64,000 bases of DNA, from IMG/VR virus record IMGVR_UViG_3300037312_001875, positions 1-64,000 of that record. One strand, given 5' to 3'. The translations under genes and the position numbers were made by a program. Below are positions 4,549-60,803 of this stretch, piece by piece (positions within the stretch are counted from its first letter, which is position 1; each line of letters opens with the position of its first letter). The notes beneath the pieces are model-generated. The model saw nothing but the letters and a program-made list of their open reading frames with translations. It had not been told where the DNA came from and did not search any database. The stretch is from a virus. Lineage: Duplodnaviria; Caudoviricetes.

Positions 4549-5691
4549 ATGGTAAACCGGATTGCTGCTATTGATGTTGGAAATGATTCTATAAAAGCTA
4601 TTTTTGGAAATTTAGAGTACGAATTGAATATCCCAAATATCATCGCAAGGGATACAGCGGAACGTCCAATCATCGGGATCGAGGAGATAAATAGTAAAAA
4701 TCCATTGGAGGGTATTCACGTTAAAGTCGTTTCTCCAGCATTAAAAGAAAACAATATGATCTATCGTGTGGGGAATTTAGCAACTAAAAGTGATAATGCA
4801 ACGGAGCTAGATCCTGGGAGCTGTAAATCAGATGAGGACCAAACATTGGTGATGTTATTTACGACTCTTGCTTTAGATGCAGTAAGAGAAGAAAATTTCA
4901 ATCAGTTTAAACGGTCTGAAAATATCGTTAATGCTCATTACACATTAGGAACCGGTCTTCCTCTTCGTGAAATAAAAGAAGGGAAAGATGTAAGTTATCG
5001 GTCGAGATTACTTGAGTCCACTCACCAGATTGAGTTTCTTGTTACGCCAAAATATCAGGGATTAAAGGTTAATATTAGATTCAATGAAGTAAAAGTCTAT
5101 CCAGAAGGATTTGCAGCCTTTATCAATCTTGTTATGGATCATGACTTAAAAATTATTAATAAGGAATTAATTGATAAACGAATTTTGATTCAGGATATAG
5201 GTGGCTTATCTACAGATATTGCTGTTATTAAAAACCGCAATGTAGATGACGATAAAGCACAAGGTTTTAACCTGGGGGTATCAGAGGCATTGGAAGCAAT
5301 CAGAGAGGAAATTAGAATTCAGCATGGGGTTGAATTAGACAGTCGCAGGGATGTAGTTGAACTCCTAACCAGAAAACAGGATCGCCATCACATTATGGTC
5401 AAAGGAAAAAAAACGAGTGTTCACCCTATCGTTGATCGCATTCTCATGGATTTAGCGAAAAAGGAATACCGACTCTTACGTAATATCTGGGCAAAGAACT
5501 CTCAAACGGAAGTCTGTTATTTTGTCGGTGGCGGTGCTAACATCCTAAAGGATTATTTGAAGACGATAAACAGTAATTTAGATGACTACAACATTGAGTT
5601 TTTCGATGATGAAAAAGAAAGTATTTGGATGATGGCCAATGCTTATTCTAAATTAATAAAGGAATACTCTAGAAGACAAAAAAAGAAATAA
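4549..5691 (+). CDS. ParM/StbA-family actin-like ATPase
   Basis: Phosphate-1 IDVGND, connect VYPEG, phosphate-2 QDIGGLSTD, adenosine FVGGGA. Confidence 0.85.
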   Translation: MVNRIAAIDVGNDSIKAIFGNLEYELNIPNIIARDTAERPIIGIEEINSKNPLEGIHVKVVSPALKENNMIYRVGNLATKSDNATELDPGSCKSDEDQTLVMLFTTLALDAVREENFNQFKRSENIVNAHYTLGTGLPLREIKEGKDVSYRSRLLESTHQIEFLVTPKYQGLKVNIRFNEVKVYPEGFAAFINLVMDHDLKIINKELIDKRILIQDIGGLSTDIAVIKNRNVDDDKAQGFNLGVSEALEAIREEIRIQHGVELDSRRDVVELLTRKQDRHHIMVKGKKTSVHPIVDRILMDLAKKEYRLLRNIWAKNSQTEVCYFVGGGANILKDYLKTINSNLDDYNIEFFDDEKESIWMMANAYSKLIKEYSRRQKKK

Positions 5692-5770: not shown

Positions 5771-7621
5771 GTGAAATTCAATAACCTGCATGATATGGAG
5801 GAATTCATTTCTAATTTGAGTTCGGGGAGTGGAGGTATCCAAATCGATGATGAATCCACTACCAGTACGATTGAAACCTGGTCAGCGAAAAAAATAGCGA
5901 CTGAGATATCGACGATAAAGAATGATACAGCGAATCTAACCAGCGGAATGACTAACATACGACAATACAATGTGTTAGGAGACGATTCTATTGGTGACAG
6001 TGACACCATTCAAGCAATGATTAACCAAAAGCGTCAAGAGATTTTGACGTTTGGGTTTTCTAAACAGAATACCGTGGATGTTCCAAGTGGTAAGTACATT
6101 ATTGATAAGGAGATAAAAATGTCCCCTTATTTGAAATTAAAAGCATTGGGTAACGTGGAATTTGAGTTGCAGTTTAATGGGACCGCTTTTTGGATCTCAC
6201 CTAGTATTGGAGATCCCATCTATGGCAACAACGATGCGACTAAGCCGATTCATTTGCGCAAAAACGTTTGGACACGTGGAAAGTATTTTGACGGTTCAAA
6301 TGGAACATTTACGTTTACAACCACCTTGAACAATGATTCGACTGGCAATAATACGATTGCAATTGAAATTGGGGATCGTGACATTGCCAGCAATCAAGCT
6401 CTACCTGTTTCGAGATATGTAATTGAGAATGCCAATGTGTATGGGCTTCATGCGGCAATTAAACATAACTCTATCAATAATTACATTGGAACTTTCAAAC
6501 ACTGTCATTGGGAACTGAACAATCACGCCATTTGGGTAACCAGTCCGACGCCAGGAAAGCAGTACAATTCGGGAGAAAACTTCAATTACGACAACTGTAT
6601 TATTGCTGGATGCAAGAAACCTGCTGTATATGTAGATGCTGCCGGCCATGACCAGACGTTTAATCATTGTTCCTTCGACTTCAACAGCTCCCCCCTCTTT
6701 TATTCCACTCATTCAGGAGTGAGCACAAGATTGGATCATTGCTACATTGAAAAAGTAGGTGATTGGTTTGGAGTAGGCGAGCAGTTGATTTATAAAGCCG
6801 AGTCCACCTTGGATGCGGAGAGCTGGGGGAGAAATTCGTTCTACATCAACAACTTGATTGTCTACTTAAAACGTCCAACCAAACTTTTCACGAATCTGCC
6901 CAACCCATCTGGCGGTCGAATCAGACTCTATTTAGATATTGATGGGATGGAGACGAGATATGACAACTATGATCCATACGATATTGACAACCGGTTCATG
7001 GTGGACGATGAGAACGAGAATATTCGTTTGATATCCCGTAAAGTTATCAATACGAATTCGATTGCCAAAAACCATGTATCGAGGAGCGGGAATCTCGTAA
7101 GAAATGGCGATTTTGAGGAATCGATGGTGGGAACCTATTTGACAATGGCCAATAAGGAAGCGGACGGGTCTTGGTATTGCTCCTATCATGACAGTGTAAC
7201 CGGCCCCATTATCACCCAAGAAGGATTAAAGGGTTCTAAGTGCCTCCGATACAATATCGTTCGCCCGGACAACGTGTTAAAAGTCGAATATAAGGGTTTG
7301 ATTCCCGTGGAACCCGGGGAAATGCTTAATCTATCTGCTCTCTTTTTGTTAGATAAAGTGAGTGCCAGGAACGAGATTAAGTATCGATTCAGTTGGTATG
7401 ATGCCATGGGTAACTGGATGTACGATTTTGACTATTTGGAAATATTTAGTGAAAGCAGTGATGTGACGGCACAAGACGGAACTAAATTCCGAACGTCTAG
7501 AAGTCACGCCCTGCTCTTTGTCCCAAAATACGCAGCAAAGGTCAAACCTGCCGTTATTACTGGAAACATCGATGCTGACTATATCCTCATCGATGACATC
7601 CACTTTTCAAAATCTAAATAA
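5771..7621 (+). CDS. Tailspike-like beta-helix depolymerase with C-terminal CBM-like domain
   Basis: Pectate_lyase_3-like start (NIRQYNVLGDD...DTIQAMIN...VPSGKYII), TWSAKKI fibre motif, C-terminal NLVRNGDFEES. Confidence 0.7.
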   Translation: MKFNNLHDMEEFISNLSSGSGGIQIDDESTTSTIETWSAKKIATEISTIKNDTANLTSGMTNIRQYNVLGDDSIGDSDTIQAMINQKRQEILTFGFSKQNTVDVPSGKYIIDKEIKMSPYLKLKALGNVEFELQFNGTAFWISPSIGDPIYGNNDATKPIHLRKNVWTRGKYFDGSNGTFTFTTTLNNDSTGNNTIAIEIGDRDIASNQALPVSRYVIENANVYGLHAAIKHNSINNYIGTFKHCHWELNNHAIWVTSPTPGKQYNSGENFNYDNCIIAGCKKPAVYVDAAGHDQTFNHCSFDFNSSPLFYSTHSGVSTRLDHCYIEKVGDWFGVGEQLIYKAESTLDAESWGRNSFYINNLIVYLKRPTKLFTNLPNPSGGRIRLYLDIDGMETRYDNYDPYDIDNRFMVDDENENIRLISRKVINTNSIAKNHVSRSGNLVRNGDFEESMVGTYLTMANKEADGSWYCSYHDSVTGPIITQEGLKGSKCLRYNIVRPDNVLKVEYKGLIPVEPGEMLNLSALFLLDKVSARNEIKYRFSWYDAMGNWMYDFDYLEIFSESSDVTAQDGTKFRTSRSHALLFVPKYAAKVKPAVITGNIDADYILIDDIHFSKSK

Positions 7622-8208: not shown

Positions 8209-10248
8209 TTACCATTCGATGACCTGACGAAGAGTAACGTCGACTGTTCCGTTACTCATCATGTTGTTTGTTGCAATTCCTGTGAGTTTTTCGTTATAGA
8301 CATTGATTAGTTTGATGGTTAGCGCCGCACCGTTGGTATTTAAATAGCTACTAACAGAAAATGCGTGTAATTTGCCATTATAGGCTTCAGCAGCATATTT
8401 CGGTATGACGGTATAGTTGAAATCATAATCATTATAGGAAGCACCGAAGTCGTAATCACTCCAGACCAAGATCCATCCGTTCCGGCAATCAGACAATTTT
8501 TTGGTTGGAACCACTTCTGCAACCGTTCCTGGGGATACTTCTCCCATTAGATTATTGCCTGACCACAGGACATTGGTCTTGTTGATGGTATAATCACCTC
8601 TCCAGTTCGAAGCATTCGCATACACAGGAGCCGTTGCCACCCAGCTGATATAGTTCGACCCCACCCGGCAGTTGTTACAATTGTTATTGATTCCGATGCC
8701 ATAACGTGGTCGGTTATTTAATTTCGAGTCAATGTAATTATCGTCCATTTCAATGCTGTCGCTATAAACGAGACCGATGGCATCGCGGGTATTATCGGAT
8801 TGATAAGCGATGTTGTTTAAACGATTTCCCCTGATGCTTCCGCCCTTCGAATAGGACATATAGATACCCGTATAAGGGATATTTGCAAGCGTATTGTTGC
8901 GGATGTTGACGTACCCTGTATATCCTAGATTTTTAAAAGTATCATCCAGTTCCGATACATAAATTCCTTCATATTGCGTGGATTCGATTCTATTATTCTC
9001 TACCGTTGCATTTAAGCAGTTATAGAGGACTACACCCCGTTGTACATCGCTTAACTGATTGTCCCGAACAACCACGTTTTTCGCCCACGTCATCTGAATC
9101 GCATTTCCTGTGGACTTTATGCTGTCTGGTTGTACATCCGGAGCAGCCCCTCGATCGAATGTATTGTTGGTAAAGCGGATATTATCCCAATAGCCAATAC
9201 CGTTTGTTCCAGCCCACCCTCTTAATACGAATGTAGAAGATATAGTACCTACAAAGTGATTTTCTGTAACGTTCATATACGAACCACTTTGGGGTTCTTT
9301 GTCGGCATGTACCATATCTTTTGTAGCGGGATCATACACCCAAGTTTGGAAACCATCATCTGCAGAACAAAGAATATCATTTTTACAGCCAATAAACGTA
9401 TTTCCTGACACTTTGCAGTTTTTAAATTTGAAGTTCCGAATCCCTGCGTAAGTCATCCCCTCAAACGTATTATTGATGATTTTTACGTCCTCCACATATT
9501 CATCATGAACAGAGGAATGATTTCCAATTCCAGTTGCTACGGGCCCCATGCCAGCCGTACCGCTCGAACCAAAATAACAGTTTTGTATGGTTATATTTTT
9601 GACGGATTTCCCGCTAAAATCACCGGTGCCTCCTGACCCTAGTTTGGTAAAAGGAGCTATCTGGATGGCTTCGGCATAGTCCCTTGATTGATCAGTGGTG
9701 GCATCTTTATAGCCCAAAAAATTACAGTTATCTATAAGAACATTTTCAAGCGAGGCTAGATCAAGGGAATGGTTAGACTTTACATCCTTGAAGGTGATAT
9801 TACGGAACGTGATATCACGACCCCGTGTAAAAGCAAACATGTTATAACTAGTGGAGTCAGGACCGGAGAGGACATTGCCATCCCAAGTTCCTCCTTCAAT
9901 GGTGATATTTCCATGCCCTGAATAAGAATCTGTTGGATCTGTAAGCGTGTCAGCGTTACTTGGATAATTGGCTAAAAACGAACCTCTTACAAATCCACGA
10001 AGCATCCGCGCATTTTGGTGAAGGATCAGCTGCACATTTCTTTTGATGAGCAACTGAGAACCAATCAAATAATATCCATCAGGTACTAAGACGGTGCCCC
10101 CGCCTCTAGAAAAAGCTAAGTCCAAGGCTTTTTGGAGAATTGGACCGTCATTAGAGATCCCATCCCCCATCGCACCAAGTGTCTTCACGTTGATTTCCTG
10201 GTCTTCTAAAATTCTAAACCGTTTCGTAATGGAACCTGAAAAGCCCAT
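8209..10248 (-). CDS. Beta-helix (pectin-lyase-like) tailspike
   Basis: INVKTLGAMGDGISNDGPILQKALD...VPDGYYLI, many parallel beta-helix repeats, C-terminal LSDCRNGWILVWSDYD fibre-tip domain. Confidence 0.75.
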   Translation of the reverse strand: MGFSGSITKRFRILEDQEINVKTLGAMGDGISNDGPILQKALDLAFSRGGGTVLVPDGYYLIGSQLLIKRNVQLILHQNARMLRGFVRGSFLANYPSNADTLTDPTDSYSGHGNITIEGGTWDGNVLSGPDSTSYNMFAFTRGRDITFRNITFKDVKSNHSLDLASLENVLIDNCNFLGYKDATTDQSRDYAEAIQIAPFTKLGSGGTGDFSGKSVKNITIQNCYFGSSGTAGMGPVATGIGNHSSVHDEYVEDVKIINNTFEGMTYAGIRNFKFKNCKVSGNTFIGCKNDILCSADDGFQTWVYDPATKDMVHADKEPQSGSYMNVTENHFVGTISSTFVLRGWAGTNGIGYWDNIRFTNNTFDRGAAPDVQPDSIKSTGNAIQMTWAKNVVVRDNQLSDVQRGVVLYNCLNATVENNRIESTQYEGIYVSELDDTFKNLGYTGYVNIRNNTLANIPYTGIYMSYSKGGSIRGNRLNNIAYQSDNTRDAIGLVYSDSIEMDDNYIDSKLNNRPRYGIGINNNCNNCRVGSNYISWVATAPVYANASNWRGDYTINKTNVLWSGNNLMGEVSPGTVAEVVPTKKLSDCRNGWILVWSDYDFGASYNDYDFNYTVIPKYAAEAYNGKLHAFSVSSYLNTNGAALTIKLINVYNEKLTGIATNNMMSNGTVDVTLRQVIEW

Positions 10249-10265
10249 AAAATGTCACCTCCCTA

Positions 10266-10532
10266 TTAATCAAAAATAATGTCTTCCCAAAGAATGTGTA
10301 GTAGTTCCGGCCGTATCTCGATGAATTTGATTTCGTTTGCATAGTTTTGCATGTTCGTCAACTGATACTGGGTATCTTCCCGGATTCCGAAATTCTTAAT
10401 GGATAACAATCTCCACTCATTTGCTAGCTTATAATGCATATACACCATCACTTCACACGAATCGCAGTATTTACCGCAGAGATCAACCAGTTCAGTGAAC
10501 CTCATTGGCGTACCTGGTACATAATCCACCAT
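10266..10532 (-). CDS. Hypothetical protein
   Basis: GGAGG SD; first gene of the leftward tailspike operon. Confidence 0.6.
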   Translation of the reverse strand: MVDYVPGTPMRFTELVDLCGKYCDSCEVMVYMHYKLANEWRLLSIKNFGIREDTQYQLTNMQNYANEIKFIEIRPELLHILWEDIIFD

Positions 10533-13915: not shown

Positions 13916-16900
13916 ATGTCGATTAAAGTCTTTAATAAAGAGAAAAAGGAATGGGAAAAGAAAACGTCTATGTTGGCCAATAACCTGAAGTTTGAAGATG
14001 TAGAAGGGAACTTCGAATCGGAGAACGTAGGAGGAGCCTTCAAGGAAGTAGCTGAATCCATTAAAACGATAAAGAACGATGTAAAGTACATCTATGAAAA
14101 CGGAACAATCGGCGGCGGCAGCGGCGGTGGAGGCGGAGGAGCTTCCACTCCTGTCGTAACCATTGACGGAGCAACAGATTATCTCGTTAATTCGGATGAG
14201 ACGCTAGATATCTACTATTATTTTACTTCTCCGAATCCAGGTAACGGAGAAGCCAACCTGACATGGGGCAGCAAAATCGAAAAACCGACCATTCCGCAAG
14301 GACGAAACAAATGGACAGTTGGTCCGTTTCCTCGAGGAACACATAACCTGACAATTACAGTCTTAGATAAACAAGGTTTTTTTAGTACACCTGTTACTGT
14401 TAAGGTTATCTCGGGTTCCCTTGCTATTACGTCTCCTTTTAGCGATAGCAAGGATTTCACACTGAATGATGACATCGCCATCCCCTATACGGTTCTCACA
14501 GAAGTAAATGAATCCGTCTTGTTGGAATATACATTCAACGGAGTGACAACAACCGTTGGTGCTAATATTGGGGACAATGTACTGAATCTCGGGAAACTTC
14601 CTTTCATGGGGATCAGCTCATTGCGGATGAAGGTTAAAAATACTAAATATACCTCTAATGAACTGAAATATACGTTGGTAGCGACCGACTCATTGAACCT
14701 ATTCATGAGTACGAGCTGGGATAAGCCAACCATAGACGTCGGTAAGAACATTCAGCTCGACTACCGAATTTCGATGAAGGGGCAATACTCTTTCAATACC
14801 GACTACTATATAGATGGAGTCCTACTGACAACAGCGAAAACTTTCCCAGGTGTAAACTTCTGGAACGTGGGAACGAACATGAGTAAGGGACCGCATACCT
14901 TTAAAATCGTAACCACGACCGTTGACGGTGCCCACACTGCCGAATTGACGATTAACCTAGAAGTCGTTACTTCTGGTTATGAGCCTTATCAACCGGTGCG
15001 AACTGGCCTAATAGCGGAATTTGATGCTACAGGTAAAATCAATAACAGTTCAACCCAGGCGAAATGGGAGGATACAAGCGGAAAAGGAGTCACATGTAAC
15101 CTATATAACTTCAACTATTTCTCGAATGGATGGATCGATAATACACTGGTTTGCTCTGGTAAGTCCTATGCAGAAATCAATCTACAGCCGTTCCTTCAAG
15201 GGATAAAGAACGGTTTCACGCTTGATGTCCTGTGCAAGATCAAAAATGTTGGGGATGTGGAAGCGAGGGTACTTAGCTGTAAGGCGCCACTCACTCCTTT
15301 CCAAGGTTTTGAAATTACACCGTCTTCCGCTTCCATAGCCACTAAACGAAGTGAAATGGTGAGTGTTCAATTGCAAGATGACACTTGGACGAAAATTACG
15401 TATGTGGTGAATCGAACCGACCGATTGATGACGATTTATGAAAATGGAGTTATCTCGGCTGTTACCTATTTACAGCCAAATGATATTAACCTAGAAAACT
15501 ATCAAGATGAATTCACCTTTGATGGCAAGATTTATGTGGGTGCTAGAAAAGATCCTGACGGGAAAATGGTCAACTTCTCTGTTTCAGCCGTCAAAAACAT
15601 CCGTGTTTACGACCGTGCCTTGACGGATGCCGATGTTTTAACCAACTACATCGCGGACTTTAAGGATGAAACCGAACAAACAGCGTTACGTGACTTGAAT
15701 TCGAATGATGAAGGGATGCCGAAGATCACCTTTACCGGTAAGTTTGACGGGATGGATGAAAACTCAGAACGTCAGGCGCAAATCTCCTATGAAGACCCGA
15801 AAAACCCTAACAAGCGTTTTGTTAAAGACTTCTGCTGGGTCAGCTGGCAGGGGACGTCCTCCAAAAACTATCCGGTAAAAAACTGGACAATCAAGTTGAT
15901 GGATGGAGCCGTACCAACCACCAACTATGCACCGAAGGATGAGTGGAGGCCGGAGAGTCGTTGGACATTAAAGGCAAACTTCATGGATAGTTCCAATGCC
16001 AATAACGTTGGCACCAACAAATTTATCTATGATTTCTTCAAGCCATATCCATATCCGAACCAGGTAAAAGATCCAACAACCCGGATGAACGTAGATGGAT
16101 TCCCTGTACGTCTTATCATGAATGGGCAGGACATGGGGATTTACACATGGAACATTGACCGTTATGCCAACAATAACTATGGATTTGAAACGTTCAATGC
16201 CGATGGAACCATCAGCCGACACCCAAATGCGGTCTCTTATGAGGTTGCCGTAAACGGAACTTCCGGTGCTGCCGCGTTCATGGACGATTCATGGGATAGT
16301 GTTCGGTCCGAATTTAAGAGCCGTTATAACTATCGTGGTGAAGAATCCGCCGTGACGGAAACGGTACTCGTTGATGGTATTGGCACCAAAGTTTTGAAGA
16401 CGGGTTCTCATAATGAATTGCAGACCTTGGTGACATGGGTTAAAAACAGCACTGACGACACCTTCCGTTCCGAGTTGGAACAGCATTTTAGCAAACGTCA
16501 CCTGATTGACTATTATTTGATTGCGTATGTACTGGGGATGGTTGATAACTTAGGGAAAAACATGGTATTGTCCACTTGGGGTAAAAACAATGAAGGAAAC
16601 ACCATTTGGTATCCGTCCTTTTACGACTGTGACTCTTTATTCGGTTTGAACAACTCAGGAATCATTGCCTTCGATGCAGGTCTTGATATGGATAAAGGGG
16701 ATTACAATACATCTCGAAGCAATTTGTGGGTGAAATTAAACCGCATGTTCGGAAATGAAATTTCGGAACGCTATAAGGAGCTCCGCCAAAACAGAACGAT
16801 AGATGGAAAAGATGCACCGCCGATTTTCAGTTATGAGAATATCACTTCTTATGTCATGGATGAAGTTATTGATGGGATCGGCCAAAAATACTATAACCAA

Positions 16901-31994: not shown

Positions 31995-33221
31995 TTATCC
32001 TATCTGTTCTAACATCTTATCTATTTCAGCTTTCTTTTCCTCAATTTTTTCTTTTTCCTCTATCAGTTTATTAACTGTTTCAAGATTTTGCGGAAAAGAT
32101 TTGTTTGCAGGATGTTTACGCATTAAAGATTTCAGGCGCTCTTGCTGTCTTTTTAATTCAGATAACGTCAATTCCTCGAAATTCTTCGTTTCAGGGCTAT
32201 CCTGTTTTATTTCTTCTTTATCAAACCAATCTGGAAGCAATTCAGTTCGTATAGGTTTACCATTCCTCTTTTGCTTATCAGGAATATTGTTAAACTCTGT
32301 ACGATTCCTCTTTAGCCAATTATTCATAACAGCTCCGAAGGTTTTAGGTCTTTCCGACATCTGATCCAATAAGCAAGCTAACACATAATCGTATTCAGAC
32401 ACCCAGTACGTTTCCTTAACGGCATTAAAATGTTTTTCAATGTCTGACACATTAATTTTATATTGAGTTAATCTATCTATCCTATCCAGCAATGTATCCT
32501 TCACTACATCATTTAAAGAAGAATTATTGATTGATAGATTAATAAAATTATTTGATTCGTTATTAAAAGAATTTGAAACATTATTAGATATATTTGATAC
32601 ATTATTGGGTTTTGAATTTGAAACGGTGACCGTTTTATTTTTGAAACCCTCTACCGTTTTATTTTTGAAACCCTCTACCGTTTTATTTTTGAAACGGTAC
32701 TTCTTATTAGACTTAACCAATTTAAGTTCTTTCTTTTTAGGTTCGACTGCATCGACTTTGCGTGGTCTTCCCCCTGTTTTACCCAGCTCCTTAGAAACAG
32801 ATTCATAATCTTGATCCCAATCCCTAAGTTTTTCTAATCCCTGGTATTTCCTGACGATTTCATGAAACGGATATTCATAAACAATGATATTTTTAGGCTT
32901 CGTTGTTTTCCGTTCGCTTTCCTCGTATTCTACAATGTCAATTAATCCAAATTCCCATAAAGGCTTGATTAATCGATAGAATTTACTTTTCGATATCTCT
33001 AATGTCTTTTTATAAATATTTTCAAAGCTCCTCGGAACACGATCATATTCTCTATCTTCGTCGTTGCGATCCACCCAAGTGTGAAACTTTAACCAGAGAC
33101 AGAATGTTTCGTAACCTAATTTTTCAATCCAGTCATCACAAACTATATAAGTCAAATGGGGTAAGCTTAATTCTTCCCTTTTTTTCTTCCCTTTACCTAC
33201 TGGTGAATTCTTTTTGGGCAT
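31995..33221 (-). CDS. Replication initiator (N-terminal wHTH, DnaD-like C-terminal region)
   Basis: GGAGG SD before ATG 33221; ISKSKFYRLIKPLWEFGLI wHTH; FKNKTVEG tandem repeats followed by an Asn/Ser-rich linker, as in lambda-O-type initiators. Confidence 0.75.
   Translation of the reverse strand: MPKKNSPVGKGKKKREELSLPHLTYIVCDDWIEKLGYETFCLWLKFHTWVDRNDEDREYDRVPRSFENIYKKTLEISKSKFYRLIKPLWEFGLIDIVEYEESERKTTKPKNIIVYEYPFHEIVRKYQGLEKLRDWDQDYESVSKELGKTGGRPRKVDAVEPKKKELKLVKSNKKYRFKNKTVEGFKNKTVEGFKNKTVTVSNSKPNNVSNISNNVSNSFNNESNNFINLSINNSSLNDVVKDTLLDRIDRLTQYKINVSDIEKHFNAVKETYWVSEYDYVLACLLDQMSERPKTFGAVMNNWLKRNRTEFNNIPDKQKRNGKPIRTELLPDWFDKEEIKQDSPETKNFEELTLSELKRQQERLKSLMRKHPANKSFPQNLETVNKLIEEKEKIEEKKAEIDKMLEQIG
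32630..32695. repeat. 24-bp iterons within rep (candidate origin)
   Basis: CCGTTTTATTTTTGAAACCCTCTA x2 plus an 18-bp third copy, next to an AT-rich tract at 32520-32620. Confidence 0.7.
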
Positions 33222-33437
33222 AATAAAAACCTCCGATTTCCACCCGCCCAAAAAAAGACAATAGGAAAATAGAGGTTTGTTCTTCACATTTTTAAAATCG
33301 TATGTTAAAATTGATTTAACATACATGAAGAAACAAACCCCGTCTCTGCAAGTTTTTTTCGAAATCGTGGCCTAGGAAACCTCATTCGAATAAAACTTTT
33401 ATGGCGGGTTTTTTTTATTTTATTTACAATTACATAG

Positions 33438-33677
33438 TTATCCACAATACGACAATTACAGACAACGTTTTCTATTTTTATATTTGTCTGTCTATTTCTT
33501 AACTACTATTATACAAGCATAATATGAAATAATAATAGGACTAGAATCCTATCTTTTGAACAACCTTTCGACAAAGATGTGTCGAACATGTATGTAACAC
33601 ACAAAAAAGTCGTCCATTTGCATGCACGACAATACCGTTATCCACAGATATAAATAACTAAATAAAAGTTATCCACA
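33438..33677 (+). promoter_or_regulatory. Three perfect DnaA boxes upstream of rep
   Basis: TTATCCACA at 33438, 33638 and 33669, all in the same orientation. Confidence 0.8.
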
Positions 33678-37861: not shown

Positions 37862-37895
37862 AATAAAAAAAGGTATCCTGCGCAGGATACCTTTT

Positions 37896-38132
37896 TTAAC
37901 TTTCTTTAAACCCTATATCATCGATGGTGTTCAATAACTTTTTTCGGTCATTTGGTCGCAAAGTATCAAGAACTTCCACTTCCTTGGCTGCCATGACTTT
38001 AATGGCTTCCATCATTTTTTGATGTGTTTTTGGTCCAATTCCAGGGATGCCATGAATAGCAGTTTCAACTAAATCCCAAGTGTCATTGCATCCTTTAATA
38101 TACGAACGAAGTAACTTTTCTGACATCCCCAT
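37896..38132 (-). CDS. Hypothetical protein
   Basis: GGGG SD; GIPGIGPKT HhH-like motif. Confidence 0.55.
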   Translation of the reverse strand: MGMSEKLLRSYIKGCNDTWDLVETAIHGIPGIGPKTHQKMMEAIKVMAAKEVEVLDTLRPNDRKKLLNTIDDIGFKES

Positions 38133-38144
38133 TTGTAGATCCCC

Positions 38145-38813
38145 TTACTGTTTAATCGTTACCCAATTTTTTTTGATGGCCAAAAGGACTGCATTAGTGC
38201 GATCCTCTACTTTTATCTTTTGGAAAATACTGGTCATATGGTTTTTTACGGTTTTTTCGCTAATATGCAAATACTCTGCCATAGATCCGTTACTGTGCCC
38301 ATCGGCTAACAACTGTAACACTTCGCATTCGCGTACAGTTAAAATTTCGAGTGGGGGATGTGCCTCTAAAGTATCAGCTTGGTTTTTTCCCACTAACGCA
38401 TCGATGACAAACCCTGTTACCTCTGGGTGTAGATATTGATGTCCTTTAACCACTTGTGTAATTGCTCCAATTAATTCAGGAGGAGTTGTTTCTTTTATGA
38501 TATAACCAGATGCTCCGTTTTTTAATGAGTCGATCACATAAGATTTTTCTGCATGAACGGAAAGCATCACTACTTTTGTATTTGGATGAAGGGTAACGAT
38601 TTCCTTGGTTGCTTCAATTCCGTCCATCTCAGGCATATTTACATCCATTAACACGATGTCTGGCTTTAATGTATCGACAAGATTTAATGCTTCAATTCCA
38701 TTTGTTGCAGAACCAACCACTTCAAAAGACGGTTCGTTGTCCAGTATACTTTTGACTCCTTCTCTAAAAAAAAGATGGTCGTCAACAAGGATGATCCTTG
38801 TAATTTTAATCAT
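38145..38813 (-). CDS. DegU-like NarL/LuxR-family response regulator (orphan)
   Basis: VDDHLFFREGVK, PDIVLMDVNMP (phospho-Asp), GYIIK, LT.RECEVLQLLADG.SN, ISEKTVKNH. Closely follows B. subtilis DegU as recalled. Confidence 0.85.
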   Translation of the reverse strand: MIKITRIILVDDHLFFREGVKSILDNEPSFEVVGSATNGIEALNLVDTLKPDIVLMDVNMPEMDGIEATKEIVTLHPNTKVVMLSVHAEKSYVIDSLKNGASGYIIKETTPPELIGAITQVVKGHQYLHPEVTGFVIDALVGKNQADTLEAHPPLEILTVRECEVLQLLADGHSNGSMAEYLHISEKTVKNHMTSIFQKIKVEDRTNAVLLAIKKNWVTIKQ

Positions 38814-38944
38814 GTTTTTTCACCCCGAAATGTAATGTCTCCTCACACTTATTCTGTCTATGTTACTTTAGTCCTAAACAAATTGTAGCACCTAGCTCGT
38901 TCTTTTACAAGTCGTTTGAAAAAATGATACAATTATGTTTATGT

Positions 38945-39116
38945 TGAATCATGTTCCAAATCTTCATAGATTCATAGGTTGTTCACGCACTATAACAGAG
39001 GAAACCCCTTAACGGCTCACGCTTATTGTTAGTAGGGGAAGTCTTGGATAACCATATACATAATGGGTAGGAACCAACATAATTTCAAACATATTGAAAA
39101 TTTGGAACAATGTTCA
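38945..39116. promoter_or_regulatory. Inverted pair of Ter-like RTP sites
   Basis: TGAATCATGTTCCAAATCTTCA (+, 38945-38966) and TGAACATTGTTCCAAATTTTCA (-, 39095-39116) match 18/22. The core resembles the Bacillus Ter core ATGTACYAAATNTTC. Confidence 0.7.
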
Positions 39117-39129
39117 TAAGGAGGAAATC

Positions 39130-39489
39130 GTGGGAAAGGATAGCGGTTTTTTAATGAAACAACGAGCCTTCTTAAAACTGTGCTTAATTGGTGAGACAGA
39201 GAAGGGGCGCCTTTACGGATTGAGCTTCTGGAAAAAAATACGTGAAGATTATGGGGATGCTTGCGAATATCGTCCTACGCATACGGAGATATATAAAGCG
39301 CTGCATGATCTAATTGACGATGGAGTTCTCAAACGGGAAAAAAGAGTCAAAGAGGGAATGAAGTATCAGGAAGTAGTGTACTATGTTTTTCAAGATTACA
39401 GCAAAGCCCAGCTTTACAAAAAACAATTGAAGGTGGAGCTGGAACGGAATATTAAAATTCTAAAGAAAGCGTTGAAGGATAATTATTGA
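39130..39489 (+). CDS. rtp: Replication terminator protein RTP homolog
   Basis: GFLMKQRAFLKL...RLYGL...PTHTEIYKALHDLIDDGVL...QEVVYY.F.DY..A.LYKKQLKVEL.R...L.KAL.DNY, collinear with B. subtilis RTP. Confidence 0.9.
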   Translation: MGKDSGFLMKQRAFLKLCLIGETEKGRLYGLSFWKKIREDYGDACEYRPTHTEIYKALHDLIDDGVLKREKRVKEGMKYQEVVYYVFQDYSKAQLYKKQLKVELERNIKILKKALKDNY

Positions 39490-39531
39490 AAAAAACAGAG
39501 GGCAAACGCCCCCTGTTTTTTTATTATACTG

Positions 39532-39897
39532 TCATCCATCATCCTTCCTTTTCTCCGTATCTTTTAAATAATCAGTTAATACAGCTACAGCGGACTTTAA
39601 GAAACATAATAAAAAATCTTTCATCAGTGATTTGTATTTAGCTGTAAAAACCTTTTTATGATTTCCAGCAAAATAAAGTTTGACTTCGCCACCTGAACGG
39701 TCAAACCTCATTTCAGCAAAACGAATGGTTTCCTTATCTTTTTCCCCCGAATAATCGATAGCAATGTATCCATCATTTTTAAATTTCTCTTTATACTTTC
39801 CGTACCATTCTTGAGCGATTGTTACCGCATCTTCATCAGTGTCCCGTAATATGGTCTTCTCCAATGAACCTTTATAGATTAATGAAATGACATACAA
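39532..39897 (-). CDS. Hypothetical protein
   Basis: Long ORF downstream of repeat copy 3. Confidence 0.6.
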   Translation of the reverse strand: MYVISLIYKGSLEKTILRDTDEDAVTIAQEWYGKYKEKFKNDGYIAIDYSGEKDKETIRFAEMRFDRSGGEVKLYFAGNHKKVFTAKYKSLMKDFLLCFLKSAVAVLTDYLKDTEKRKDDG

Positions 39898-39956
39898 CTA
39901 TTGACGCCTCCCCCGTACATAAATAAAAAATCAGTTCCACCTCCTTTTTAGTTTTA

Positions 39957-40021
39957 TAATTATGAAATTAGAAAAGGAGACAATATTACAATTGTCTCCT
40001 TTACCATTTTCCTTATAACAC
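39957..40021 (-). repeat. 65-bp hairpin promoter-like repeat, copy 3
   Basis: TAATTATGAAATTAGAAAAGGAGACAAT-ATTACA-ATTGTCTCCTTT...CTTATAACAC. Confidence 0.7.
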
Positions 40022-40181
40022 TTTCTTAAAATGCGAGCGTTCGATGAAAAAATATGAATATTTTTATTAACCCAAGAATACAAACAAGTATTTTGTTCAT
40101 AAGATTTAGAAAAGGGGGTTATTTATCGCAAGAAAATTGTGAATTCAAAAAATGGAAAATCTATTTTAAGATAGAAAAAAA

Positions 40182-40324
40182 TCATTACTGACTCATTACT
40201 CAGTTATTATTCATTCCCGTAAAAACGTTGTCTATCTCGTTACTAAGGTCATTACTGAGCTTTCAGTAATTACTCGAAAGGCCAGTAATGAAAAAAAGGT
40301 GACCTTCTAGCTCATCAGTAATGA
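40182..40324. repeat. TCATTACT/AGTAATGA array
   Basis: TCATTACT at 40182, 40193 and 40249; CGTTACT at 40238; CAGTAATTACT at 40264; CAGTAATGA at 40282 and 40316. Confidence 0.65.
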
Positions 40325-40400
40325 AGTTAAGAATTACTTTCTTGAAAAAGGAATCAGTTAGAAGGGTCTAAATAAAAATTGTAAAAAGAGGAAGGTTATT

Positions 40401-41045
40401 ATGTATAGAATTACATCCACGTTTCAAGCAAAAGAATCCATCAGAGATTTTCATCCTCATTCTGGAATTGACTTTGCGCTACCTTTGAATGAGCCGATAC
40501 GTTCAATCAGAGATGGTGTTGTTGAAAAAATTACTCATTATAAAGGAAACATTGGTAATGGGGTTTTAGTTCGGTGGGATGACGGGAAGGTTTCTATTTA
40601 CGGTCACATGAATAAGGTTAACGAAAGCCTTCATGTTGGTGATCAGATTCATGCCGGAGAACTGCTCGGATTCGCGGGCTCCAGTGGCCATAGTTCGGGC
40701 GTACATCTCCATTTTGGCCTCAAAGAAGGAGGAAGATTTATTGATCCTTCCCCCTACATTAACGATATACAGAGCATGAACATGAAACAATATGTGCAGC
40801 AAGCACCTGTAGTTACCCAATTGAAAATGAACTTTATGGAATATATGCAAATGCATATGAACGCAGTTAATGATTCATTATCAAACCTAAATCTTCACTT
40901 CATCAATTTCTTATCTCAAGCGAAGCTTCATTTAATTTCTTCTTTACTTGACAATTCTTTGTTCTTCCAAGTATTCAAGCAAATTTATCAATTCACGGCG
41001 ACTCATTCCAGTTCGATCTATGACATAATCACTCACATCATCTAA
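40401..41045 (+). CDS. M23 family peptidoglycan peptidase
   Basis: HSGIDFA (HxxxD), YGHM and GVHLHF (HxH). Confidence 0.85.
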   Translation: MYRITSTFQAKESIRDFHPHSGIDFALPLNEPIRSIRDGVVEKITHYKGNIGNGVLVRWDDGKVSIYGHMNKVNESLHVGDQIHAGELLGFAGSSGHSSGVHLHFGLKEGGRFIDPSPYINDIQSMNMKQYVQQAPVVTQLKMNFMEYMQMHMNAVNDSLSNLNLHFINFLSQAKLHLISSLLDNSLFFQVFKQIYQFTATHSSSIYDIITHII

Positions 41046-59885: not shown

Positions 59886-60803
59886 ATGCCAATGTCAACA
59901 CCACGTATGAACGGTGAACTTCGTGAAGAAGAGTTAGAGCTTCGCGAACTTCTATCATCTCCAACCGGTTTTGAACGCTATGCGTCAGAAAAAATGCCGG
60001 AATTTATTCAAGTTGTACGAGATTACGAGGGCTTTGTCCGTGACGTTCTTATGGTCACTGAAGTTACTCCCGAAGACCTTGTTCGTGTAGACGAAGAAGT
60101 ATTTGTCGTTTACTCGAAAGACGTTGATGCAACAGCATCCGTTATCGCTCGTTACGGCGAAGCGCCTACTCTAATGGTTAAGGGTACTACCGTGAAGGTA
60201 ACCTTCTTCCCGGTTACAACTCCACGCTTAACTATTACTCAGTGGGATCTCGACACTCAACCATACGATTTAATGCGTCGTACTCAAGAGAAGGCGGGCC
60301 AAGAGCTTTCTAAGTTAGAAGACAGAACTTTCTTAGATGCAATTGACGGCCTAATCGAATCTCCTGAAGCTGGTGGTAAGCAGCAAGTTACTCAAACTGA
60401 AACTGCTATCACTAAAGCTGGTATGTTAGCAATCAAGCAAATTTTCAGCCGTAACAACGTTGCGTTCTCATCTTATCTAATGCACCCAGCTACTTATGAT
60501 AGCTTCCTATTATGGGGCGAGGCTGAATTAGATCAATTCACCCAACGCACTGTCTTGGAAACTGGCCAGCTGCCTACGATTTGGGGTGGCTTGAAGATGA
60601 TCACAGGTATGATGATTCCTGAAAACTACGTTTATGGTCTTGCTCCGAAGGAGATTCTAGGTCGTATGCCAATCCTTCGTGATGTGACGATTGACGTACA
60701 ACGAATCCCTCAGACACAGGATAAGGAATTGTTGGCTTACGAGTACATCGGCATGTACATTCACAGCCATTTAGCGGTTTCTCGACTTGAACTTGCATCC
60801 TAA
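59886..60803 (+). CDS. Major capsid protein (HK97 fold)
   Basis: 305 aa; QELSKLEDRTFL helix, YLMHPATY, MIPENYVY.LA, YEYIGMYI; followed by a strong terminator. Confidence 0.75.
   Translation: MPMSTPRMNGELREEELELRELLSSPTGFERYASEKMPEFIQVVRDYEGFVRDVLMVTEVTPEDLVRVDEEVFVVYSKDVDATASVIARYGEAPTLMVKGTTVKVTFFPVTTPRLTITQWDLDTQPYDLMRRTQEKAGQELSKLEDRTFLDAIDGLIESPEAGGKQQVTQTETAITKAGMLAIKQIFSRNNVAFSSYLMHPATYDSFLLWGEAELDQFTQRTVLETGQLPTIWGGLKMITGMMIPENYVYGLAPKEILGRMPILRDVTIDVQRIPQTQDKELLAYEYIGMYIHSHLAVSRLELAS

Follow-up and report, generated by a model that had tools for sequence, protein, structure and literature searches.

Analysis of a 64,000-nucleotide window of a tailed-phage genome of the class Caudoviricetes (IMG/VR record IMGVR_UViG_3300037312_001875) revealed a gene encoding a homolog of the replication terminator protein (RTP) of Bacillus subtilis. 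This rtp gene is preceded by a pair of inverted Ter-like sites and is positioned near a putative plasmid origin. The window, i.e., the whole stretch that was analyzed, corresponds to positions 16626 to 80625 of a 116,043-bp contig, and positions given below are those of the window unless the contig is named. The arrangement is probably an autoregulated, self-contained RTP/Ter fork trap of a Bacillus-type plasmid-prophage from soil, placed beside the origin in a manner resembling that of plasmid R1. The RTP/Ter system has so far been regarded as a peculiarity of the chromosomes of one Bacillales subgroup. In the phage-plasmid, approximately 550 bp hold the whole system, that is, the protein, both sites, and the autoregulatory layout.

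The rtp gene and its paired Ter-like sites

Searching Pfam with the rtp product revealed a match to the RTP family (PF02334) with an E value of 1e-41 and a score of 142.4 bits (cutoff, 26.7). The match covered the full profile (positions 1 to 113 of 113) and was reproduced in a search of the 116,043-bp contig. The product was also matched by PHROG 38489 ("replication terminator"). A phmmer search of the Protein Data Bank (PDB) revealed B. subtilis RTP (entries 1F4K, 1BM9, 2EFW, and 2DQR) with an E value of about 1e-36, where residues 4 to 119 of the window protein were aligned to residues 8 to 122. The alignment was colinear, including the C-terminal dimerization helix, and contained a single gap of one residue. 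The original prediction had named the gene an rtp homolog, and this end-to-end match to the solved B. subtilis protein confirms the assignment.

The identity of the window RTP to chromosomal RTPs was 58 to 63% for Anoxybacillus, Geobacillus, Priestia, Metabacillus, and Salipaludibacillus and 55% for the B. subtilis group. In an alignment of 21 homologs, the residues corresponding to B. subtilis Y33 and Y88 (Y29 and Y85 in the window RTP) were invariant. Residues E30, Y33, and Y88 of B. subtilis RTP are reportedly needed for fork arrest and not for binding. The residue corresponding to C110 is Asn in the window RTP and in three metagenomic proteins of about 80% identity, which form a small clade with it; most chromosomal RTPs keep Glu at the position of E30 and Cys at that of C110. 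In the phylogenetic tree, the window RTP was placed on a long branch and is no recent copy of any sampled chromosomal gene. A metagenome scan for closer RTP relatives gave a top identity of no more than 61%. A protein-pattern scan of viral contigs yielded no match with the single window RTP as the query and four contigs with the RTP alignment as the query. A nucleotide search with positions 38800 to 39600 yielded no match among plasmids, and NCBIfam held no model matching the window RTP or the rep product.

A repeat search revealed two inverted arms of 22 nt (38945 to 38966 and 39095 to 39116) upstream of rtp, which are 82% complementary (18/22) and spaced by 128 nt. This search reproduced the two inverted sites described in the original prediction. 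The distal arm contains the core ATGTTCCAAATCTTC on the plus strand (38951 to 38965), and the proximal arm contains the core TTGTTCCAAATTTTC on the minus strand (39096 to 39110). Relative to the rtp start, the distal core is located at -178 and the proximal core at -34. Both strands of the contig were searched for exact matches to the 14-nt pattern TGTWCYAAATNTTC, and these two cores were the only ones found. The pattern was drafted after the B. subtilis consensus, and W at position 4 was allowed after the window had been seen. Its chance expectation was 0.037 from the base composition and 0.053 from 300 first-order Markov simulations, none of which contained two or more matches (0/300). Each window site carries one mismatch to the strict B. 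subtilis-group core (13/14). The T variant at core position 4 is a natural one that is present upstream of the chromosomal rtp gene of Salipaludibacillus, where the rtp-proximal core is identical to the window proximal core. These results uphold the earlier observation that the arms contain a Bacillus-like Ter core. An A-site-like motif, ATGTTTA, is located at 38935 to 38941, 17 to 11 nt 5' of the distal core. It shares its register with ATGTTCT and ATGTTCA in the sites of Salipaludibacillus and of elements of the pBtic235 type (see below), two motifs that look like A half-repeats.

Scanning the full available contig for further sites revealed matches with one or two mismatches that were mostly intragenic and no more frequent than expected by chance. 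No dif-like site was found near the Ter pair. The 10-nt core TGTTCCAAAT has two extra copies on the contig, at contig positions 6402 and 84414 (window positions -10223 and 67789). Both copies are on the minus strand and are oriented as the proximal site; one is intergenic and one lies within an open reading frame (ORF) of 999 amino acids. Their number is within chance (simulated mean, 0.82).

Both Ter-like sites are positioned between the predicted rtp promoter, which was called by a consensus match only, and the start codon. The proximal arm ends two bases before the Shine-Dalgarno sequence, in agreement with the original description of a second site directly upstream of it. The rtp promoter stands back to back with a leftward promoter-like site (38910 to 38882) of a gene divergent from rtp. 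This gene (38145 to 38813, minus strand) encodes a response regulator of the NarL/DegU type with a receiver domain and a GerE domain. The hairpin downstream of rtp is probably a two-way terminator. The features of the locus and of the putative origin are listed in Table 1.

Table 1. Features of the rtp locus and the putative origin in the window
Feature	Position	Strand	Remarks
rep, encoding a 443-amino-acid initiator	31995-33326	-	Residues ~50-190 match RepA of theta plasmids
Iteron-like tandem repeats inside rep	32531-32606		21 nt x 3.6
Iteron-like tandem repeats inside rep	32629-32695		24 nt x 2.8; 100% matches
Three perfect DnaA boxes TTATCCACA upstream of rep	33438-33677	+	Starts at 33438, 33638, and 33669; part of the putative plasmid origin
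Predicted sigma-A-type rtp promoter	38904-38933	+	TTTACA, 18 nt, TACAAT, TG-extended; consensus scan 10/12
Distal Ter-like site	38935-38969	+	B-type core 38951-38965 in inverted-repeat arm 38945-38966
Proximal Ter-like site	39092-39126	-	Core 39096-39110 in inverted-repeat arm 39095-39116
Shine-Dalgarno sequence AAGGAGG of rtp	39118-39124	+	Read directly; 5 nt before the GTG start at 39130
rtp, encoding a 119-amino-acid replication terminator protein homolog	39130-39489	+	Pfam, PHROG, and PDB matches
GC-rich hairpin flanked by T-runs, separating rtp from the convergent ORF 39532-39897	39497-39513		Called on the minus strand; plus-strand T-run read directly

In B. subtilis, a ter site binds two RTP dimers, the B half more tightly than the other half, and a fork that reaches the B half first is stopped; autoregulation results from a ter site in the rtp promoter region (PMC10331603, PMC13220808). 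Comparison with the chromosomal rtp loci of B. inaquosorum, B. nakamurai, B. amyloliquefaciens, B. spizizenii, and Salipaludibacillus revealed a plus-strand core at -150 to -198 and a minus-strand core at -44 to -50. The conserved core is taken here to be the B half, on the basis of the 21-bp B site of the RTP-DNA crystal structures, which matches the distal site of B. amyloliquefaciens. With the distal core on the plus strand and the proximal core on the minus strand, the B halves of the window pair point inward, as in the B. subtilis group and in Salipaludibacillus. The original prediction had stated that the locus mirrors the TerI/TerII-rtp arrangement of B. subtilis. The likeness holds for orientation, spacing, and core and does not extend to the A half of the proximal site, which is poor, and that site may serve mainly as an operator. 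The Ter-pair layout is not universal, since the chromosomal rtp genes of Anoxybacillus, Geobacillus, and Priestia showed no obvious inverted pair with such a core directly upstream; two of the plasmids with rtp likewise lacked such a pair directly upstream of the gene. One record in the comparison, NZ_CP154897.1, which is catalogued as a linear B. amyloliquefaciens "plasmid" of 147,780 bp, is evidently a chromosomal fragment. On it, a fabG-like gene, proC, proB, a LysR-family gene (probably gltC), and gltBD flank rtp and its two Ter sites.

The putative origin, the phage-plasmid, and the proposed trap

Residues of about 50 to 190 of the rep product match the RepA proteins of many theta plasmids from Bacillus, Geobacillus, and Parageobacillus. 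Four DnaA boxes were counted in the window versus 0.85 expected, a number that was reached in none of 100 shuffles. In the spacer upstream of rep, the DnaA boxes were the only direct repeats found. Between the Ter pair and these features, the distance is 5.3 kb for the nearest DnaA box and 6.4 kb for the iteron farthest away. The distances of 5.3 to 6.5 kb to rep, the iterons, and the DnaA boxes that had been claimed originally thus hold, at 5.3 to 6.4 kb as measured from the distal site. The Ter pair does not lie opposite the origin; this position is unlike that in the chromosomal system and like that in R1.

Analysis of the surrounding genes revealed phage and partition functions. To the left of rtp are located genes for a partition protein (4549 to 5691), a tail spike (8209 to 10248), and three fiber proteins headed by an Mtd_N domain (25.4 to 30.9 kb), followed by rep. 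To the right are located genes for an M23 peptidase, an FtsK/SpoIIIE ATPase, DndB, a ParA-like protein, a head-protease-like protein, and the major head protein (59886 to 60803). The chromosomal neighbors of rtp (a fabG-like gene, proC, proB, and glt) are absent around the window gene. The rtp locus is therefore inside a phage-plasmid. The original prediction had named the possibility that the assembly would turn out to be a host chromosomal terminus into which the element had inserted; the phage tail and head genes and the partition genes on both sides of the locus exclude it.

The same stretch was present in contigs of 12 public metagenome runs. In the four runs that were compared, the sequence was identical, and contigs covering 37868 to 40512 and 38466 to 39736 bridged the response-regulator gene, the Ter pair, and rtp. 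Between 33000 and 41000, contigs from several metagenomes of soil and rhizosphere, obtained in different studies, showed zero base differences at a low depth of about 5x. The only tyrosine recombinase gene on the contig (contig positions 115035 to 115490) is located about 59 kb from the Ter pair. No DnaB-type helicase was found in the 116-kb contig. Neither a second origin nor a phage-type helicase was found in these 116 kb, which are a fragment of the element.

The following mechanism is proposed. By homology to B. subtilis RTP, RTP dimers would bind to the high-affinity B-type cores of both inverted sites. Occupancy of the sites should throttle rtp expression, because both are positioned between the predicted promoter and the start codon and the proximal site abuts the Shine-Dalgarno sequence. 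Such binding and autoregulation are very probable, and the proximal site is likely the operator. The distal site would halt leftward forks, and the proximal site would halt rightward forks if it were a full terminator. Since the two B halves face each other, the pair would form a two-way trap that forks can enter and cannot leave. We consider it reasonably probable that at least one of the sites arrests forks. With the origin located 5.3 to 6.4 kb to the left of the trap, the rightward fork would travel about 5.5 kb until the proximal site stopped it. Its leftward counterpart would replicate the remaining circle, and the distal site would keep it from running back into the origin region. In the plasmid state, replication would thus be unidirectional in effect and end at a fixed terminus. 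The trap would also suppress run-on synthesis, multimers, and rolling-circle forms, as Tus does together with terRL and terRR in R1. Net near-unidirectional replication, as the outcome of these steps, is proposed tentatively and is held with less confidence than the steps of binding and arrest.

RTP modules on other mobile elements

Searching for RTP homologs on other elements revealed members of the same Pfam family on a 240-kb plasmid of Cytobacillus (pN497-ZHONG), a 229-kb plasmid of Paenibacillus rhizovicinus, the B. licheniformis plasmid pBL141-2, the Brevibacillus phage Jenst, and elements of the pBtic235 type. The RTP/Ter module, with covarying sites, recurs on other elements of 200 to 240 kb. 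Upstream of the Cytobacillus rtp gene, a TGTGCC core and a TGTTCCGG core were found. The P. rhizovicinus plasmid has an inverted pair (15/16) of the TGTCTAAA core type. In Jenst, a perfect inverted pair of 16 nt with a core of the TGTACTAAT type is located at -132 and -73. A core of the TGTTGYTAAAT type precedes rtp in pBL141-2. The pBtic235-type elements, which include a 239-kb viral contig, have a full distal core of the window type and a proximal half site. The sites vary together with the proteins and yet keep their position and orientation, a pattern that would be expected of cognate binding sites.

On two of these plasmids, rtp is located within 1 kb of a replication initiator gene. In pBL141-2, a rep gene encoding a protein with a DnaA_N domain is followed by two pairs of DnaA-box-like repeats, eight iterons of about 23 nt, a Ter-like pair, and rtp, and everything from the DnaA-box-like repeats through rtp lies within about 600 bp past the rep gene. 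The module spans 8355 to 10345 of the plasmid, with the DnaA-box-like repeats at 9378 to 9422 and the iterons at 9431 to 9658. On the P. rhizovicinus plasmid, rtp is followed at 0.8 kb by a gene for an initiator of the Phage_rep_O type. In pBtic235, the Cytobacillus plasmid, and Jenst, a gene for a Xer-type tyrosine recombinase is located 0.3 to 4 kb from rtp. The Cytobacillus plasmid also carries DndB, as does the window. In B. subtilis without RipX, the loss of RTP leads to more chromosome dimers, which makes a link between fork trapping and dimer control plausible on the elements with a neighboring Xer gene.

The element pBtic235 is a 235-kb plasmid-prophage of B. thuringiensis israelensis that encodes an Rtp homolog with 48% identity to Rtp, together with a Xer recombinase (PMC8116677). 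In strain 4Q7, Bolotin et al. observed a read coverage of pBtic235 about 1.5-fold higher at 225.5 to 235.4 kb and at 1 to 48.6 kb (PMC8116677). Inspection of the pBtic235 record (NZ_CP013278.1, positions 225,348 to 225,871) revealed that its rtp homolog starts at 225,485 and that the plus-strand core starts at 225,348. The coverage boundary at 225.5 kb therefore falls on the rtp/Ter site, and the high side is the side faced by the B half. This boundary fits an arrest of forks arriving from the overcovered side and is suggestive only. The authors did not tie the boundary to rtp or Ter (PMC8116677), and the site offers a simple explanation for a boundary that had remained unexplained. No description of pBtic235 Ter sites was found in the searchable literature. 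The B. cereus group is reported to be without a chromosomal Rtp (PMC8116677); if this holds, the pBtic235 system must serve the element itself, independently of a host protein.

In the RTP phylogeny, which had been called for in the original prediction, the element-borne RTPs branched either outside the chromosomal clade or at its base, and two proteins from plasmids were sister to those of the B. subtilis group. The tree was midpoint rooted, and its root and the direction of transfer are provisional. The RTPs of Bacillus massiliigorillae and Bacillus sp. JJ722 clustered with the plasmid proteins of pBtic235, Cytobacillus, and pAP1 and may be element-borne as well. A wider proposal is that large phage-plasmids and megaplasmids of the Bacillales regularly carry an RTP/Ter module as an accessory linked to the origin or to Xer, each with its coevolved core, and that the chromosomal traps of the Bacillaceae are domesticated copies of such modules. 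We regard this proposal as speculative and, taken as a whole, unlikely. If it were true, it would be the Gram-positive counterpart of the plasmid origin that has been proposed for Tus.

An element-encoded RTP as such is not new, and its novelty had been somewhat overstated in the original prediction. Such a protein has been reported for pBtic235 (PMC8116677), and the Brevibacillus phages Jenst and SecTim467 have an annotated one. The site pairs and their proximity to an origin appear to be undescribed. An incomplete literature search revealed no description of inverted cognate Ter pairs on such elements, of their covariation, or of their placement by plasmid origins. What appears to be new is a probable RTP/Ter trap in a self-contained, origin-proximal, element-borne form. 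Such a module offers a compact, portable test bed for polar fork arrest by RTP, including natural variants of protein and site specificity, for the R1-type idea that origin-proximal traps prevent run-on replication, and for the question of whether mobile elements were the source of chromosomal fork traps in Firmicutes, as has been proposed for Tus.

Alternative readings and comparison with known fork traps

Several observations weigh against an origin-proximal trap. The auxiliary A half, which in B. subtilis is filled cooperatively and is required for arrest, is weakly matched at the distal site. At the proximal site, it matches poorly and overlaps the rtp Shine-Dalgarno sequence, the complement of which is the only sequence there. 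The residue corresponding to E30 is Gly (G26) in the window RTP and in its three 80%-identical relatives; E30 of B. subtilis RTP has been implicated in helicase contact, a role that is disputed. On the basis of its position and of the orientation in the B. spizizenii record, we take the window proximal site to correspond to B. subtilis terII, which is described in a review as nonfunctional or a poor terminator at an ectopic position. Given its poor A half and its terII-like position, the proximal site may be chiefly an operator. Genes diverge from the Ter pair on both sides, and the GC skew changes there from minus to plus, which is origin-like and not terminus-like. The skew tracks the gene strand and marks no terminus at the Ter pair. 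A leftward unidirectional fork would run head-on to most genes, although the head-on genes are late phage genes, probably silent in the plasmid state. The contig represents part of the element (CheckV, 29%), and relatives are 197 to 240 kb in size; since it is a fragment, further origins or Ter sites may exist. The coverage step of pBtic235 has other possible causes, because the strains also carry joins between plasmid and chromosome. Lastly, fork arrest, near-unidirectional replication, the switch to rolling-circle or conjugative replication, and the cross-reaction with host Ter sites are all inferred; the original prediction had put forward the last three.

Some of these observations would also fit a protein that stops no forks and is a self-repressing, PadR-like winged-helix regulator of rtp and perhaps of the divergent response-regulator operon. 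RTP belongs to the PadR-like fold, and the rtp product has a weak match to the PadR family of Pfam. RefSeq names the plasmid RTP homologs "helix-turn-helix transcriptional regulator." Moreover, both sites are in the rtp leader and adjoin divergent promoters, and the poor A halves, the loss of E30, and the weak termination at B. subtilis terII point in the same direction. This explanation is nevertheless unlikely. Over its whole length, the window RTP shares 55 to 63% identity with bona fide chromosomal RTPs, and it keeps the invariant equivalents of Y33 and Y88. The terminator core and the trap geometry are kept, which is more than a palindromic operator would need. In addition, rtp is repeatedly found beside replication initiators, origins, or Xer recombinases and not beside regulated cargo, and pBtic235 shows a coverage step at its site. 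A trap that acts mainly on other forks is less probable still. It would restrain lytic or rolling-circle replication until RTP has been diluted out, or would work on the Ter sites of the host chromosome. Cross-recognition is conceivable, since the window core is identical to a chromosomal core of Salipaludibacillus and matches those of the B. subtilis group in 13 of 14 positions. Over most of the element, rightward forks would suit the gene orientation and the GC skew, and these are exactly the forks that the proximal site would block. Bolotin et al. also speculated that the pBtic235 RTP might serve the host chromosome (PMC8116677). However, no host was identified for the window element, and no Ter-like sites beyond chance were found elsewhere on the contig. 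A phage-type helicase or a second origin was likewise lacking in the 116 kb of this incomplete fragment, and the explanation adds assumptions without extra support.

It is very improbable that the locus is host chromosomal terminus DNA that adjoins or was captured by a prophage, or that the repeat arose by chance. Prophages are often located near Bacillus termini, and one "plasmid" match, NZ_CP154897.1, is a chromosomal fragment with a true rtp. The window locus contradicts such an origin. It has tail spike and fiber genes (8 to 31 kb), rep, and a partition gene on its left and FtsK-like, DndB, ParA, and head genes on its right, and it lacks the fabG-like gene, proC, proB, and glt. Its RTP is no more than 63% identical to the sampled chromosomal RTPs and is placed on a long branch. 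An expectation of 0.04 to 0.05 for the cores argues against a chance repeat. The preferred reading remains the autoregulated RTP/Ter trap beside the origin of a plasmid-prophage.

Comparison with known systems revealed similarities and differences for each of them. The window locus resembles terI/terII-rtp of B. subtilis in a protein of the same family over its full length (55% identity), a 13/14 core, inward B halves, a site in the leader that suits autoregulation, and the placement of the distal and proximal sites with respect to the start codon. It differs in that the trap is on a phage-plasmid, 5 to 6 kb from a Rep/DnaA-box origin and not opposite oriC. It has a single pair of sites with no outer backup sites in 116 kb and no dif-like site nearby. 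Its A halves are divergent, and E30 and C110 are replaced by Gly and Asn, respectively. With BTF1_31667 of pBtic235, it shares an element-encoded RTP (45% identity) on a large Bacillus phage-plasmid and a plus-strand core of the TGTTCC type, located at -137 in pBtic235. There, rtp is located beside xerS and not within 6 kb of an identified rep gene, and the proximal site is a half match. The "putative replication termination protein" of the Brevibacillus phages Jenst and SecTim467 is likewise a phage-borne RTP (33% identity), preceded in Jenst by an inverted pair. The Jenst protein is far more divergent and forms the outermost branch of the tree; an XerD-like gene is located near it, and no plasmid rep was identified nearby.

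The Bacillus theta plasmid pLS20 is said to have a Ter-like sequence, TerLS20, just outside its replication region. This site is reportedly a single dyad-symmetric one with bidirectional activity that depends on the host RTP, and pLS20 reportedly carries no rtp, which agrees with the statement of the original prediction on this plasmid. The likeness to the window is the Ter-like site by a theta-plasmid replication region, and the difference is that the window element has an rtp of its own. In R1, terRL and terRR are located beside oriR; one fork is stopped nearly immediately, the other has by then copied most of the plasmid when it is stopped, and replication is unidirectional. Without Tus, multimers and rolling-circle intermediates are formed. 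On chromosome 2 of Pseudoalteromonas, tus is located with repA and parAB at ori2, and an R1-type arrangement is implied. The window shares with both a fork trap directly beside a plasmid-type origin, the function of which we infer here. Tus and its sites are unrelated to RTP, and R1 uses the Tus protein of its host, whereas the window element encodes its own terminator protein.

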